NCBI GenBank assembly: GCA_001695645.1
Contig: LVZN01000031.1
Span: forward strand, 1-5,661
Direction: 5' to 3'
DNA length: 5,661 nucleotides
Origin: Erysipelotrichaceae bacterium MTC7
GTDB taxonomy: Bacteria > Bacillota_I > Bacilli_A > Erysipelotrichales > Erysipelotrichaceae
Shown: in pieces, positions 135 to 4,446 of the stretch
Layout: the number at the start of each line of letters is the position of its first letter
Numbering within the stretch: position 1 is the stretch's first letter
Position numbers and translations under genes: made by a program
Notes under the pieces: model-generated
Told to the model about the DNA's origin: nothing
Databases searched by the model: none
Seen by the model: only the letters and a program-made list of their open reading frames with translations

Positions 135-380
135 TCAAACTCGTATCCAATCACCAATCCACTCACCATTAGTTTTGTTCATTTTTCTCTTATATTTAAC
201 TCCATTTACTGTTTTATAAACCCAAATATAAACAACAGATTTACCCTCCCCATTCGAGTTTGATGTAGTTGACCTACTCAAGGAAAATTGTGATATATCC
301 TCTTCTGATGCATTAATACTTGATGTAAAAAAACACAAACAAAGAATAAGAGACAATAATAGTTTTATTTTATTTTTCAT
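135..380 (-). CDS. Small secreted protein of unknown family (81 aa; predicted mature form 57 aa)
   Basis: The ATG at 378-380 is preceded by AGGAGG (385-390). That RBS starts 2 nt after the stop of the upstream M56 gene (393-395), which implies co-transcription. The N-terminus is a Sec-type signal peptide: MKNKIK / LLLSLILCLCFF / TSSINA|SEE. There is no lipobox. The mature C-terminal 35 aa is basic and aromatic (8 K/R vs 2 D/E) and ends in GEWIGDWIRV. I did not recognise a family. Confidence 0.7.
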   Translation of the reverse strand: MKNKIKLLLSLILCLCFFTSSINASEEDISQFSLSRSTTSNSNGEGKSVVYIWVYKTVNGVKYKRKMNKTNGEWIGDWIRV

Positions 381-392
381 TTTTCCTCCTGA

Positions 393-1514
393 TTATTCAC
401 TTTTGACTTCAAGGTGTTCATATTCAACTGTGATTTCTTCTATAGTTTCTAAGTACTCATTTTTATAATAAACATCAAAGCCTTTATCGGTTTCAATAAT
501 ATATGAGTTATCTTCTGTCAAAATAAAATATTCGTTTCCTTCAGGTATAGGGTAATCTGGTTGAAATGTAACTAAAGACACCATGACAATAAGGATTAAA
601 AGTAACGTGTATGATAAATTATTTAATTTAGTGCGTTTCGAATTTTCGTCAAATGATAGAATTGACCGACATCTAGTTGTAAACTCGGAGTTGCTTTCGT
701 TACCTGCAAATTCTGAAATCAGTGGGGTTTTATTCCAAATTATATTACTATTTATTCCATAAGTTTCAGCTTTTCTATACATTTTAAACAAGAATTCTGT
801 ATAAGTTACTGAATTGTTTTCTTTCATTTTCAGAACATGCAAATCAACATCTTTCTCTAACAATTCATACGTTTGCCTTCTAATTACAAACAGTAATGGA
901 TTCCACCAATACAAAGCATATATAAATTCGATAAGTAGTTTTATTAACATGTGAAAGTGCAAAAAATGTGTTAGTTCGTGTTGTAGTATCATAGATAACT
1001 CTGCTTCAGTGTAATCATCTTTTGGAATAATGATTGTACCTTTTACAAGTCCAATAACCATCGGAGCTGGAACAAAGTTTACATAAATTACCCTTATTTT
1101 TCTTCTTTTTGGCATAAAATCAACTAGAGATGGCATTATACTCTGTGGTATTTCACTGCTAGGAAATATTGAGAATACCCTATTTGTAACATATGTTTTT
1201 CTAATTAGCTTTATTAGCTTATATGCACTTATCGTAAACCAGAAAAAGATCATTAAATCTAGTATCATATAATCCATAAGAATCTTTGTTCTCAACATTT
1301 TACTTAACAAAACTAAAACATTGGTTGATAAGAAATGCCCGATTATTGGCAATTCTATCGGAATAGCAAGTCTCAACGAAATCACAACAAAAATTATCAG
1401 TAATGGTTTTATATCTATTTGCTGATTTGCATATCTATCTTTCAACTGTTTAAGAAAATATATACTTAAACTTGAAAAAAAGATAACACTTATTGTACCC
1501 CATGTTGTAAACAT
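393..1514 (-). CDS. BlaR1/MecR1-type M56 family membrane metalloprotease (signal transducer/anti-repressor) with a short non-PBP C-terminal ectodomain
   Basis: The zinc motif HELTH (residues 179-183) is encoded at 966-980. Its context is typical of Peptidase_M56: APMVIGLVKGTIIIP...ILQHELTHFLHFH...WWNPLLF...EKDVD. Hydrophobic segments sit at the N-terminus (about residues 5-20, 36-58 and 82-97). A further TM helix spans residues 299-317 (564-620). It is followed by a 56-aa tail (396-563). The start lies 4 nt downstream of the blaI-like stop. Confidence 0.9.
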   Translation of the reverse strand: MFTTWGTISVIFFSSLSIYFLKQLKDRYANQQIDIKPLLIIFVVISLRLAIPIELPIIGHFLSTNVLVLLSKMLRTKILMDYMILDLMIFFWFTISAYKLIKLIRKTYVTNRVFSIFPSSEIPQSIMPSLVDFMPKRRKIRVIYVNFVPAPMVIGLVKGTIIIPKDDYTEAELSMILQHELTHFLHFHMLIKLLIEFIYALYWWNPLLFVIRRQTYELLEKDVDLHVLKMKENNSVTYTEFLFKMYRKAETYGINSNIIWNKTPLISEFAGNESNSEFTTRCRSILSFDENSKRTKLNNLSYTLLLILIVMVSLVTFQPDYPIPEGNEYFILTEDNSYIIETDKGFDVYYKNEYLETIEEITVEYEHLEVKSE

Positions 1515-1518
1515 ATCA

Positions 1519-1920
1519 TTACCTAGTTTTTTCTTCTCTTCTTTCCTGAATCATCTTCTCAATCTCGTTGAGCATTTCTTCCTCTGATTGGTTTGATTCA
1601 GATTTCACCAGTGCAAGTGTCATTTCGTATATTGGATTATCTTTTTTACTCTTAGGAAATAAACTTTTGAATTGATCAACAGCATACTCATCCGCAGAAA
1701 CTAATGGAGAATACTTTCTTGCGTTGGTTTTATTTACAATTGTGATAGACGATATTTCTATATATTCCTTATTAAGCAATGTCTTTAAAGTATTTTGAAC
1801 AGTAAATATACTTATTTTTTCATCATCTATCCTTGATAATATTTCTGTTGCAGTTAAGCTATCATCTTCACTCCATAATACTTTCATAATATCTAATTCT
1901 CTTCCTGTTAATCTTTTCAT
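1519..1920 (-). CDS. BlaI/MecI/CopY-family winged-helix transcriptional repressor (Penicillinase_R-like)
   Basis: The translation MKRLTGRELDIMKVLWSEDDSLTATEILSRI...FTVQNTLKTLLNKEYIE...RKYSPLVSADEYAVDQFKSLF matches the BlaI/CopY pattern of an N-terminal wHTH followed by a YsPlvs..eY core. I prefer the ATG at 1918-1920 because AGGAG (1932-1936) lies 11 nt upstream. The ORF-track start at 1941 has no Shine-Dalgarno sequence and adds only 7 residues (MLGVEYI). Confidence 0.88.
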   Translation of the reverse strand: MKRLTGRELDIMKVLWSEDDSLTATEILSRIDDEKISIFTVQNTLKTLLNKEYIEISSITIVNKTNARKYSPLVSADEYAVDQFKSLFPKSKKDNPIYEMTLALVKSESNQSEEEMLNEIEKMIQERREEKTR

Positions 1921-1998
1921 AATATACTCTACTCCTAACATTCAAAATCGTATTCAATCATAAAAAACTCTTGAACTATAACTTACCTTTACAATTAT

Positions 1999-2027
1999 AT
2001 ACTACATAGATTGCTTTAATGTGTCAA
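1999..2027 (-). promoter_or_regulatory. Candidate sigma-A promoter for the blaI-like operon
   Basis: On the minus strand a perfect -35 TTGACA (complement of 2022-2027) is followed by a 17-nt spacer and a -10 TAGTAT (complement of 1999-2004). This is about 55-75 nt upstream of the repressor start codons. Confidence 0.5.
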
Positions 2028-2029
2028 CA
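2022..2029. promoter_or_regulatory. TGTCAACA box 1 (candidate operator), overlapping the -35 of the minus-strand promoter
   Basis: The 8-mer TGTCAACA has an internal TGT-N2-ACA dyad and recurs at 2107-2114. The flanks are partly conserved: TTaAtgTGTCAACAaTA versus TTcAatTGTCAACAgTA. A degenerate third copy, ATCAACAAT, lies at 2042-2050. Confidence 0.35.
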
Positions 2030-2072
2030 ATAAACATAAAAATCAACAATTAATAAAATTTGTTAATTAGTA

Positions 2073-2101
2073 TTGTAAGACGTTAATACTTGTGTTATTA
2101 T
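2073..2101 (+). promoter_or_regulatory. Candidate sigma-A promoter (extended -10) for the divergent micro-ORF and secreted-protein operon
   Basis: The -35 is TTGTAA (2073-2078), followed by a 17-nt spacer that ends in TGT (2093-2095). The -10 is TATTAT (2096-2101), which gives an extended -10 of TGnTATTAT. The predicted transcription start near 2108-2110 falls inside TGTCAACA box 2. Confidence 0.5.
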
Positions 2102-2106
2102 TCAAT

Positions 2107-2114
2107 TGTCAACA
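2107..2114. promoter_or_regulatory. TGTCAACA box 2 (candidate operator) at the predicted +1 of the plus-strand promoter
   Basis: This is the second exact copy of TGTCAACA. It is immediately followed by the 8-bp palindrome GTAGCTAC (2115-2122). Confidence 0.35.
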
Positions 2115-2202
2115 GTAGCTACACAATAGTTGATGAATGAAATATTTAATATTTTTATGATTTACTTTAGTACAATAAGGAAAAGGAGAAGAAATAGGGG
2201 AA

Positions 2203-2337
2203 ATGAAAAAGAATGAATATTCAGACTTAAGGAAAAAGGGCGAAGAATATGGTAAAGATATTCGCTCATGGTATATTGGTTTTCTCGTGATATCTTTGAT
2301 TTTAGCAATTATCGTTATTGTATACTTGTTTATGTAG
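2203..2337 (+). CDS. Unannotated 44-aa tail-anchored membrane micro-protein (hypothetical)
   Basis: I translated this by hand: MKKNEYSDLRKKGEEYGKDIRSWYIGFLVISLILAIIVIVYLFM*. It has a charged N-terminal half followed by one clean TM helix of about 20 aa. A purine-rich stretch AAAAGGAGAAGAAATAGGGG (2181-2200) lies upstream. The stop is 20 nt before the next gene and downstream of the candidate promoter. It is below the size cutoff of the supplied ORF track. The Shine-Dalgarno spacing is suboptimal. Confidence 0.45.
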   Translation: MKKNEYSDLRKKGEEYGKDIRSWYIGFLVISLILAIIVIVYLFM

Positions 2338-2357
2338 ATTAAGGAAAAGCAGAAAAA

Positions 2358-2849
2358 ATGAAAATTTATAAAAAAATGCTTGTGGTACTGGTTGCTACAG
2401 TCATTGCTATGGTTGGTTTTACGAAATCAATAGATGCAGCTTCCATAGCTAGAACTGGAAAACTTGGTGGTACATTTAATACTACTTATCATTATGCGTA
2501 CAACTACAGTGCAATGATTTACTATGATGCAGGAACAGGTAGAGTTACATCCGCTGACACAATAAAAACAAGTAACAAAACTTGTGCTAGTCTCATTGGA
2601 CTAGAATATGGATGTTCGATCAACACTTCTCAAGCTTCTAAAACAATCAACTATGCTAGCGTTAAATATGTTGTTAAGGTTGATGTATATGCAAACACAG
2701 GTTGGGGCGGTGGAGTCTATGTTGGTTCACAAAATAACACAGTTACACTAAGCTCACCTGGACCAACTAGAGGTGCGGAACCGTTAGAAACGATTGAAAT
2801 TGGAGAAATGTACACTGATTTAAGATTGGTTGAAAACTTTGTAGAATAA
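2358..2849 (+). CDS. Orphan secreted protein (163 aa; predicted mature form 136 aa)
   Basis: The signal peptide is MKIYKK / MLVVLVATVIAMVGF / TKSIDA|AS. The mature part is rich in Thr, Ser, Asn, Tyr and Gly, which suggests a beta-rich fold. It has a single Cys pair (C-x9-C, CASLIGLEYGC), a GWGGGVYVG glycine patch, and an acidic tail EPLETIEIGEMYTDLRLVENFVE. A strong terminator follows. I did not recognise a family. Confidence 0.8.
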   Translation: MKIYKKMLVVLVATVIAMVGFTKSIDAASIARTGKLGGTFNTTYHYAYNYSAMIYYDAGTGRVTSADTIKTSNKTCASLIGLEYGCSINTSQASKTINYASVKYVVKVDVYANTGWGGGVYVGSQNNTVTLSSPGPTRGAEPLETIEIGEMYTDLRLVENFVE

Positions 2850-2885: not shown

Positions 2886-2923
2886 AAAAAGTGGTTACAC
2901 ATTATAATGTGTAACCACTTTTT
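2886..2923. terminator. Bidirectional rho-independent terminator
   Basis: A perfect 12-bp stem pairs GTGGTTACACAT (2891-2902) with ATGTGTAACCAC (2907-2918) around a TATA loop. The stem is flanked by AAAAA (2886-2890) and TTTTT (2919-2923). It can therefore terminate both the plus-strand operon ending at 2849 and the convergent minus-strand operon ending at 3042. Confidence 0.85.
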
Positions 2924-3285: not shown

Positions 3286-4446
3286 TTATTTATAAATCAA
3301 AATAATAGAGGTGGAAGAACTTCCACCTTTGATATTTACCTTGTTAGGGGTTCTGTTTTTTTTGCACTTGCATTTTTTATTTTGTGTGACTTTTGCTTTA
3401 TCAATTGTGTTACGAATAGAATCAATAGAACTACTTTCTGTTTTTTTTACAAGGAATTCATTCCAGTCCTTACTACCATCAAGAGGATATAATTCCTTTG
3501 CATTAACTCCTTTACTAGATAATATTTCAATTGCAATACCAGCAAACTTTTTTCCAGCGTTAATTTTATTTCCCCAGTCATTATCGTAGCACACCGTAAT
3601 ACTTTCATATCCAATACGTTCTTGCACCTTCAATATCGTTTCATACCGTGTACAGCTCCCAGTTGCAAGGTAAGCGTAATCGTTCAAATCTATTCCTTTT
3701 TCTTTTTGAAGAGTCATGTAAGACAGCATATCAACTGCTCCTTCAAAACAAAGTAATTCTTTTTTTGAAGAATATGGTTTTTCATTATATGCATTTTGTC
3801 TTGGATCTACTGACATATCTACTAGCCAACCATAATTGTAATCAGACCCTTGGATTTCTAATTTAAAATTGTTTGCATCCGTACAAGAACGTATATTTAC
3901 GCAAGCAACTAAGCCTAGTTCATCTCTTCCCACAAAAGCAACAGATTTTCTACCAAACCTGTCTTGTGCCTGCTTAATAAAGTCTTGTTTGACCAATGTA
4001 ATAACGATAGTTGGATCTATTTTTCTTTTCTGAATTAAGTATGCCATTACGTTTTTACTAGATTCATCAAACGTAACATTACCAAGCAATGTTTGTGTTC
4101 GCTTTTTTTTGTAGGCTAAAGAATTAGTATCTTCTAACGTTTTCCTTGGTTTTTTTTCTATTACATCAACATCTACATTTATCCTTGGCAAACAATACTC
4201 ATAAGCTTCTTTAAAGTTCATATCAATCTCAGGGATCTCTTCCATAAATTTTAGTACGTCTCCGCCTTTATGTGTAGCCCATCTTACAAACGAGTTAGTA
4301 TCTTTATATATAGTTACTGAATCATGTTCTTCTAGTTTAGCTAGTCTTTTTGATTTATGGACAACTCTCAATCCAAATTCCTCCGCAATATCCACAATTT
4401 GTATTTGATCCTTTATTTTGTTTTTTAATTCTCTATCTATTTTCAT
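3286..4446 (-). CDS. DUF3991/Toprim domain protein (conjugative-element primase-like)
   Basis: The Toprim motifs are the Glu in LLCFEGAVDMLSY (E235, 3742-3744) and the DxD in TVCYDNDWGN (residues 288-290, 3577-3585). The central region resembles DUF3991: AYLIQKRKIDP...VAFVGRDELG...FKLEIQGSDYNYGW. The N-terminus resembles a CHC2 primase zinc-finger fold but lacks the Cys ligands. The start lies 3 nt after the stop of the upstream gene. Confidence 0.85.
   Translation of the reverse strand: MKIDRELKNKIKDQIQIVDIAEEFGLRVVHKSKRLAKLEEHDSVTIYKDTNSFVRWATHKGGDVLKFMEEIPEIDMNFKEAYEYCLPRINVDVDVIEKKPRKTLEDTNSLAYKKKRTQTLLGNVTFDESSKNVMAYLIQKRKIDPTIVITLVKQDFIKQAQDRFGRKSVAFVGRDELGLVACVNIRSCTDANNFKLEIQGSDYNYGWLVDMSVDPRQNAYNEKPYSSKKELLCFEGAVDMLSYMTLQKEKGIDLNDYAYLATGSCTRYETILKVQERIGYESITVCYDNDWGNKINAGKKFAGIAIEILSSKGVNAKELYPLDGSKDWNEFLVKKTESSSIDSIRNTIDKAKVTQNKKCKCKKNRTPNKVNIKGGSSSTSIILIYK
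3296..3328 (-). terminator. Terminator-like hairpin inside the last codons of the Toprim gene
   Basis: A perfect inverted repeat pairs AGGTGGAAG (3309-3317) with CTTCCACCT (3320-3328). On the minus strand it is followed by CTATTATTTTGATTTAT. It encodes the odd C-terminal GGSSSTS tail and sits just upstream of the RBS of the 78-aa gene. Confidence 0.4.

Follow-up and report, generated by a model that had tools for sequence, protein, structure and literature searches.

About 6% of some 15,000 M56 proteins bear a transpeptidase domain, and about 96% of M56 proteins have a BlaI-like gene no more than five genes away (Kurtz et al., J Bacteriol 2026, PMC13492132). M56 proteins without this sensor are thus the majority of the family and not an oddity (PMC13492132). 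The closest described precedent for the locus reported here is CenIR of C. difficile, in which the M56 protein has a short non-transpeptidase tail, the repressor acts mainly on the gene of a small exported protein 215 bp downstream, and the inducing signal is unknown (PMC13492132). Other non-beta-lactam pairs are PetR/PetP of Synechocystis, where a BlaI-type repressor and an M56-type protease take part in a non-beta-lactam response (bioRxiv 10.1101/2020.07.31.226407), and the BlaI/BlaR pair of Mycobacterium, as it is cited in PMC13492132. These pairs come from other phyla and differ from the present locus in their sensor tails and targets, and they are not known to have a conserved secreted third component. 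The locus in question lies on a contig of Erysipelotrichaceae bacterium MTC7 whose full length of 5,661 nt was analysed (hereafter the window). Its minus strand encodes a BlaI/MecI-family repressor, a short M56 protease of 373 amino acids (aa), and a small exported protein of 81 aa, and its plus strand encodes, divergently, a membrane micro-protein of 44 aa and an exported protein of 163 aa. The evidence presented below makes it probable that these five genes are a three-gene BlaIR-family module for regulated proteolysis and a separate cargo cassette, juxtaposed on a conjugative element.

The identity of the two larger minus-strand products had been proposed in an initial annotation made from the DNA alone, and domain searches agree with it. 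The repressor matches Penicillinase_R (PF03965), whose members combine an N-terminal winged-helix domain for DNA binding with a helical C-terminal dimerization domain, with E=6.4e-12 over residues 11-132, and its family profile matches BlaI of M. tuberculosis (2g9w, 5e-5), MecI (1okr, 8e-5), and BlaI (1sd4 and 1p6r). The match of the protease to PF05569 (E=1.5e-21) covers residues 76-260 only, and the transpeptidase domain is absent. Indeed, the C-terminal penicillin-binding protein (PBP)/transpeptidase sensor (PF00905) by which BlaR1 and MecR1 are recognized was not found in the 373-aa protein, which reaches 57 bits with the NCBIfam model blaR1_generic, where the cut-off lies at 400, and 35 against 1200 with the MecR1 model. 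The zinc motif HELTH (HExxH) is located at residues 179-183, and H179, E180, H183, and E220 are invariant among relatives. The closest M56 homologue is 59% identical (P0003), and others are more distant. An exact-protein look-up of the window M56 protein retrieved no record.

The AlphaFold model of the protease has a mean predicted local distance difference test (pLDDT) value of 66, with values of 73-86 in the protease core. When this model was compared with the Protein Data Bank (PDB) using Foldseek, the sole significant matches were five entries of S. aureus BlaR1 determined by electron cryo-microscopy (E values from 3e-7 to 5e-5), which include 8exs, 8exq, 8exp, and 8exr with a probability of 1.00 and a TM-score of 0.60 to the domain formed by the transmembrane segments and the metalloprotease. 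The last hydrophobic segment spans approximately residues 302-320. The tail that follows it is acidic (3 K/R versus 15 D/E in residues 324-373), a charge that fits a location outside the membrane, and residues 321-373 are predicted to form a three- to four-stranded beta-meander, with strands in residues 330-358 and pLDDT values of 64-73. The conserved positions of the tail are Q..Y..P, NSYII, and G.Y. The sensor of this protein is therefore predicted to be an extracytoplasmic beta mini-domain of about 55 aa instead of a penicillin-binding domain, and the Pfam, fold, and profile matches together bear out the earlier proposal of a BlaI/BlaR1-type pair in which the PBP sensor has been exchanged for a small conserved ectodomain.

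The window pair shares with BlaI/BlaR1 and MecI/MecR1 of S. aureus and B. licheniformis the fold that joins transmembrane segments to a gluzincin protease, and the Pfam family of the repressor. In B. licheniformis blaP/blaI-blaR1, blaI precedes blaR and the neighboring operon is divergent, as is the case in the window. The differences are that the window lacks the PBP sensor, the beta-lactamase or PBP2a target, the Asn-Phe cleavage dipeptide, and the TACA-N-TGTA operator box, and that its module has an additional conserved gene for a secreted protein. No beta-lactamase or PBP2a gene was found linked to the BlaI/M56 pair, the divergent genes being those of the 44-aa and 163-aa proteins.

The conservation of the three minus-strand genes was evaluated with a scan for M56 proteins in GTDB species genomes, which gave 73 loci. 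The short M56 proteins of the window type (360-430 aa) make up a set of 43 loci, and homologues of the 81-aa protein were found by iterative search among the open reading frames (ORFs) of the M56 loci. The short-M56 loci belong mostly to Lachnospiraceae and other Clostridia. A BlaI-like gene adjoins the short M56 gene in 40 of the 43 loci, and in 27 loci the M56 gene is directly followed by a gene for the small protein, mostly with a gap of -4 to +14 nt. Given that homologues of the repressor, the protease, and the 81-aa protein keep the same order in many genomes, the locus is not a product of chance. The 81-aa gene, whose place in the module had been overlooked in the initial annotation, is its conserved third member. 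That annotation had also asked whether the mini-ectodomain always occurs together with the 81-aa and 163-aa genes; the 81-aa gene does accompany it in 29 of 42 related loci, frameshifted or truncated remnants included, and the 163-aa gene in none of the loci besides the window.

The surroundings of the trio are variable. The closest homologous module (locus L001) is chromosomal and lies between ilvD and sbcCD, with an operon for a lipoprotein, an ABC ATPase, and a 767-aa permease in the divergent position. The neighborhoods of 31 non-redundant loci are heterogeneous, with ABC_tran as the commonest family at 8 of 136 neighbors, and further neighbors include LytTR regulators, an S8/SLH protease, DUF4885, and a MobA/MobL relaxase (L039 and L049). 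In the clade of 375-aa M56 proteins, a block of approximately 90 nt upstream of blaI, which holds the palindrome ATATCA-N5-TGATAT, is conserved while the flanks further upstream are unrelated. Because this block is conserved and the DNA beyond it differs, the portable unit consists of the promoter/operator, blaI, the M56 gene, and the small-protein gene.

The 81-aa protein consists of a signal peptide (hydrophobic residues 4-25), a variable stretch of approximately 25 aa, and a conserved Trp/Tyr-rich C-terminal domain of approximately 35 aa with the family motif D.I..KYR..NG.LQYRRWN.T...W..P.WI, in which R65, W74, and W78 are invariant in the family alignment. No Pfam or NCBIfam model matches the family, and no match to the 81-aa protein was found among plasmids and viral contigs. 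The spacing of the C-terminal domain is WW-like (G-x13-W-x2-P), WW domains being sheets of three strands and approximately 35 aa in which two Trp stand 20-22 residues apart and a Pro lies near the C-terminus. The sole match of the family among PDB sequences is the designed WW prototype 1e0m, which is weak (E=0.44). Comparison by hhalign with a hand-typed WW alignment gave a probability of 9.5% and P=0.003, and a Pfam WW match was found in 0 of 22 family members, so that homology to WW domains is a weak lead. Neither curated families nor the searchable literature yielded a description of a conserved small exported third component of BlaIR systems. In one of the relaxase-associated loci (L049, 4197-4556, minus strand), a 119-aa ORF on the opposite strand, approximately 1 kb upstream of the module, ends in a motif similar to that of the small protein (…WVYAEINGQIYRRLYDITNQCWIGDRELCP). 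It has no signal peptide and also clusters with BlaI-like sequences, and has the appearance of a piece of some other module that was rearranged.

The five ORFs of the locus, their coordinates, the gaps of 4 nt between the repressor and M56 genes (1515-1518) and of 12 nt between the M56 and 81-aa genes (381-392), and the position of the ribosome-binding site of the third gene were all as initially annotated. Read on the minus strand, the junction of the M56 and 81-aa genes is TAA-TC-AGGAGG-AAAA-ATG, so that the ribosome-binding site begins 2 nt past the M56 stop codon. Hydropathy fits N-terminal signal peptides in the 81-aa and 163-aa proteins and one C-terminal transmembrane segment in the 44-aa protein. 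The divergent intergenic region (1942-2202) has 261 bp. The repressor itself most likely starts at M8 (ATG at 1920), giving a protein of 133 aa, because the 66%-identical repressor of L001 begins at the equivalent residue, and with this start the control region would be approximately 281 bp long.

The candidate promoter of the repressor operon is overlapped at its -35 box by an imperfect palindrome (2015-2034). A candidate operator half-site, YTTACAWW, is present at the -10/+1 of this promoter, and a further copy covers the -35 of the plus-strand candidate. In the L001 control region, a stretch of 184 nt contains the motif 5 times, versus 33 times in 18 kb overall. In place of the TACA-N-TGTA box, clade-specific palindromes are found upstream of blaI. 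The de novo search for an operator common to the window and L001 returned AT-rich k-mers and the post hoc half-site only, and no operator is claimed. The sequence TGTCAACA(A/G)TA is found at 2022-2032 and again at 2107-2117, and its minus-strand reading, TGTTGACA, corresponds to two -35-like boxes. The duplicated TGTCAACA boxes were considered as an operator and rejected since they are better read as -35-like elements, the second of which (TTGACA, 18 nt, TATTAA) could belong to a second, upstream promoter of the repressor operon.

Taken as two units, the locus would be made of the module (135 to approximately 2030, minus strand) and the cassette (2203-2849, plus strand). In the module, a repressor dimer bound to one or more operators overlapping its own promoter would keep the operon at a low level. 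A non-beta-lactam cue from outside the cytoplasm would act on the mini-ectodomain of the M56 protein and turn on its cytoplasmic HExxH protease, which would then cut the repressor, and the operon would be de-repressed. The level of the small protein, whose gene is translationally coupled to the protease gene, would thereby rise as well and provide feedback. The co-expressed small protein may be the extracellular partner of the mini-ectodomain, whether ligand, co-receptor, or modulator. This role is favored by its obligatory adjacency and translational coupling to the M56 gene, by the lack of a promoter of its own, by the extracytoplasmic location of both parts, and by the fact that two subtypes of the small protein and two of the ectodomain segregate together without exception (10:10). 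A third gene in such an operon has a parallel in mecR1-mecI-mecR2, where MecR2 is said, from work by Arede and colleagues in 2012, to modulate the switch as a cytoplasmic ROK-like anti-repressor acting on MecI. MecR2 resembles the 81-aa protein in being encoded by a third gene co-transcribed with sensor and repressor, but there is no sequence relationship between them, and the 81-aa protein, being Sec-exported, could act only outside the membrane.

Several observations weigh against this reading. The small-protein gene is missing from 13 of the 42 related loci, and in L001/L002, L008, and L020 it has suffered a frameshift or a truncation, with decay or absence in about a third of the loci. Given that protease and repressor can persist without it, an obligatory co-receptor is argued against. 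In a mirror-tree comparison, the small protein co-varies with the ectodomain no more than with the protease domain (partial r of 0.31 versus 0.40), and therefore the 10:10 co-segregation of their subtypes is equally explained by shared descent. The Asn-Phe scissile dipeptide that S. aureus BlaI/MecI have in the dimerization helix is not conserved, and for this reason cleavage of the repressor can only be assumed: in the profile alignment, LVLNFVEKE of MecI stands opposite aaLvkke, which is TLALVKSE in the window repressor. This dipeptide defines the staphylococcal members and not the entire BlaI/MecI/CopY family. The TACA-N-TGTA box of bla, mec, and cop operators is absent from 42 upstream regions, with 0-1 occurrences at spacings of 0-15 nt, which is the shuffle expectation. 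The half-site was defined post hoc in AT-rich DNA and occurs 2 times in the intergenic region of the window versus approximately 0.5 expected (about 4-fold), and the number of promoter-like sites in this region equals the shuffle expectation.

With respect to the lesions in the small-protein gene, that of the closest relative was followed in two assemblies (L001, 8193-8440, and L002, 1190-1363). The gene is split: its signal-peptide ORF stops at 8366, and past a TGA another frame carries on with the conserved C-terminal domain (IYKTVNKVTYKRRFNQTTGKWVGDWIRI). Because it is present in two independent assemblies, this lesion is a real frameshift or pseudogene and not an assembly error.

The repeated loss or pseudogenization of the small gene while blaI and the M56 gene stay, and the non-specific co-variation of its product with the ectodomain, would also fit an organization closer to that of CenIR, where the small exported protein is a regulated output acting on the envelope, with no part in sensing, and the mini-ectodomain senses alone. 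In C. difficile, CenI likewise acts chiefly on the gene of a small exported protein that lies just downstream of cenIR (PMC13492132). This explanation is nevertheless considered rather unlikely for the window. The small gene lacks both a promoter and an operator of its own and lies 12 nt from the M56 stop codon (-4 to +14 in relatives), and its product would therefore be made in step with the sensor and not as a switched target. If it were the sole output, the 13 loci without it would be purposeless, and CDR_0474, a protein of 136 aa unique to C. difficile as described, has no known relation to the 81-aa protein.

The window module is nonetheless the same kind of system as CenIR. A blaI gene beside an M56 gene whose product has a short C-terminal region with no recognizable domain, which is the hallmark of CenIR-type pairs, is what the window contains. 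The likeness extends to the BlaI repressor upstream of the M56 gene, the short non-transpeptidase extracytoplasmic tail, the occurrence in Firmicutes, and a signal-peptide-bearing small exported protein of unknown function encoded just downstream. The two systems differ in that cdr_0474 is 215 bp away, behaves as if repressed separately, and is induced about 500-fold, whereas the small gene of the window is in the same operon. CDR_0474 is reported as unique to C. difficile, while members of the 81-aa family occur in many Clostridia and Erysipelotrichia. The tail of CenR has approximately 125 aa and is mostly disordered, in contrast with the conserved beta mini-domain of the window protein. What is new is the combination of a conserved structured mini-ectodomain with a conserved in-operon small exported protein in many Clostridia and Erysipelotrichia.

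The earlier suggestion of a secreted self-signal may hold for the 81-aa protein only. A stronger form of the partner role, in which the cell itself makes the small exported protein as an extracellular ligand or co-receptor of the mini-ectodomain and the trio is an auto-inducing signaling loop based on proteolysis, is held to be decidedly unlikely. In such a loop, the BlaR-type protease would sense the secreted protein and destroy the repressor of the operon from which both are made. If this were true, the trio would be a new three-component form of BlaIR signaling, possibly a sensor of cell density or cell contact, the loop would be common among gut Clostridia and Erysipelotrichia, and it would serve mobile elements for driving cargo of various kinds.

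The initial annotation had placed all five genes in a single self-contained circuit, with the 44-aa and 163-aa proteins as the dedicated output or the self-signals of the BlaI/M56 pair. The divergent layout around one 261-bp region does mirror that of blaP/blaI-blaR1, and a candidate half-site covers the -35 of the plus-strand promoter. However, co-occurrence of the five genes was found nowhere else, which largely refutes the circuit as a conserved system and makes this explanation very unlikely. None of the M56 loci besides the window holds a homologue of the 44-aa or the 163-aa protein (0 of 43 short-M56 loci), and the closest homologous module, L001, faces the ABC-transporter operon. Conversely, neither blaI nor M56 genes were found beside the 163-aa homologues at the five homologues with readable context, which represent four distinct loci: one in [Clostridium] innocuum, one present in two Logan assemblies, one in another Logan assembly, and one in a JGI metagenome. 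These contexts are ordinary chromosomal ones.

The family of the 163-aa protein is small. Exhaustive search of 1.84 billion representatives retrieved 16 proteins with E<=1e-3, a count that includes the query and one spurious repeat protein (P0021, 818 aa, with 7 stretches), which was excluded as a homologue. A word-indexed search returned the query alone, and the family emerged only by the exhaustive one. Its members are secreted proteins of 150-200 aa with two conserved Cys and an SSPGP motif. The AlphaFold2 model of the 163-aa protein (pLDDT of 86.4, predicted TM-score of 0.74) is all-beta with long strands. Foldseek found no convincing counterpart for it, either in the PDB (best E=0.12, TM-score <0.3) or in BFVD (best E=0.04, TM-score 0.26). 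Neither the 163-aa nor the 44-aa protein has a match in Pfam or NCBIfam, and known bacteriocin, toxin, or adhesin families were not recognized in the 163-aa protein by Pfam, NCBIfam, PHROG, or PADLOC; it has no match among plasmids. These data speak neither for nor against the earlier suggestion that it may be an effector, with the 44-aa protein as an accessory.

The 44-aa protein, with its transmembrane segment at residues 19-44, has no homologue in the databases. In [Clostridium] innocuum (L077, 7790-7940), the 163-aa homologue is directly preceded by a collinear 44-aa-like membrane ORF of weak similarity (33% identical in 49 columns, with E=2e-4 for a search space of 2.5 kb). This ORF has an in-frame TAA after codon 11 and no later start codon, and is thus a pseudogene or read through. 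A 44-aa-like match in another locus (L085) was on the wrong strand and was rejected. The [C.] innocuum arrangement, where the pair appears as a cassette of its own, suggests that the 44-aa and 163-aa genes are an older two-gene unit. Given this pair, the lack of homologues in M56 loci, and the occurrence of the 163-aa family without BlaI/M56, the two genes are best regarded, from comparison of gene content, as a separate cassette that here occupies the divergent "target" position. Whether the repressor also controls this cassette is about evenly balanced, given that the half-site is post hoc in AT-rich DNA and that the promoter-like sites are at shuffle level.

Some further features of the cassette and its relatives were observed. 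The G+C content is 0.35-0.36 across the 163-aa gene, versus 0.29 across the repressor, M56, and 81-aa genes, which also speaks for a separate cassette. A direct repeat of 26 nt (85% identical, GTA.A.TAAGGAAAAG.AGAA.AAAT) is found at 2170-2195 and 2334-2359, before each plus-strand gene, and gives both genes near-identical ribosome-binding contexts. In two distant relatives (L082, 8464-8910, and L084, 795-1232), the stop codon of the 163-aa-family gene overlaps the start codon of the next gene, which encodes a conserved, cytoplasmic-looking protein of approximately 146 aa. These partners are 53% identical between the two loci and are absent from the window.

Beyond the cassette, the gene for a CHC2/DUF3991/Toprim primase, of the type usual in Gram-positive conjugative elements, confirms the conjugative neighborhood that had been noted from the DNA. 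Homologues of this primase are found on 412 plasmids, of which 326 are typed as conjugative. A bidirectional terminator closes both the plus-strand cassette and the convergent genes of the integrative and conjugative element (ICE). In L039 (3690-5390) and L049, the MobA/MobL relaxase gene (E=9e-91) is immediately upstream of the blaI-M56-small-gene trio and co-directional with it, which places at least one clade of the module on mobilizable elements.

This neighborhood raises the question of whether the pair works as a switch of the mobile element itself, in the manner of ICEBs1 ImmR/ImmA, the protease then being an anti-repressor for genes of excision, transfer, or maintenance. The adjoining conjugative-type primase, the relatives located beside the relaxase (L039, L049) or beside sortase/SpoVG/DUF6674 genes (L003), and the match of the BlaI-like proteins to the phage regulator family phrog_1077 are in line with this possibility. 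Yet most of the related loci are non-mobile with mixed contexts, there is no conjugation family among the 25 commonest neighbor families, and the L001 module is chromosomal (ilvD/sbcCD). The operon of the window points away from the ICE genes, and the bidirectional terminator parts the plus-strand cassette from them. The components are also of another kind, namely a multi-pass membrane M56 protein and Penicillinase_R instead of ImmA (M78/COG2856) and an XRE regulator, and such a switch is hardly probable at all.

At the end of the contig, just downstream of the 81-aa gene (14-79), there are two tandem direct repeats of 33 nt (73% identical, with CCACACG-TATTTTATA in common), which could represent iteron-like repeats, the end of an element, or a site of recombination. 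No match was obtained for the whole window by megablast against plasmids and phages, by Rfam and tRNA scans, or with the PADLOC models of defense systems. The features of the window are collected in Table 1.

Table 1. Coordinates of the genes and of the candidate control elements in the window.
Feature	Position	Strand	Basis and remarks
81-aa small exported protein	135-380	-	ORF; third gene of the conserved module
373-aa short M56 protease (BlaR1-type, membrane zinc protease)	393-1514	-	ORF and PF05569
BlaI/MecI-family winged-helix repressor	ORF 1519-1941 (140 aa); probable gene 1519-1920 (133 aa)	-	PF03965
Candidate operator half-site YTTACAWW	1988-1995	+	Post hoc motif
Near-match to the half-site, CTACATAG	2000-2007		Post hoc motif
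Candidate promoter of the repressor operon	1999-2034	-	TTGACA 2027-2022, 17 nt, TAGTAT 2004-1999; best in scan, 10/12
Candidate operator half-site YTTACAWW	2072-2079	-	Post hoc motif
Candidate promoter of the plus-strand cassette	2073-2101	+	TTGTAA, 17 nt, TATTAT, upstream TG; 9/12
44-aa single-pass membrane micro-protein	2203-2337	+	ORF; first gene of the cargo cassette
163-aa Sec-exported all-beta protein	2358-2849	+	ORF; second gene of the cargo cassette
Bidirectional intrinsic terminator	2886-2923		Perfect 19-nt palindrome, A5/T5 flanks; z = -6.2; 0/200 shuffles fold as well
CHC2/DUF3991/Toprim primase	3286-4446	-	Domain matches; context gene

For the annotation of genomes, these results imply that such loci should not be called regulators of beta-lactam resistance, and that the divergent neighbor should not be assumed to be a dedicated target. 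The module behaves as a portable regulatory cassette that brings along its own promoter and palindrome and is found beside varied cargo, be it ABC transporters, LytTR regulators, relaxases, or the 44-aa and 163-aa genes of the window. Given that approximately 94% of the M56 proteins named "BlaR" have no beta-lactam sensor, and that the cues they sense are unknown (PMC13492132), the co-translated secreted mini-protein would be a concrete candidate for the extracellular side of a sensor-less switch.

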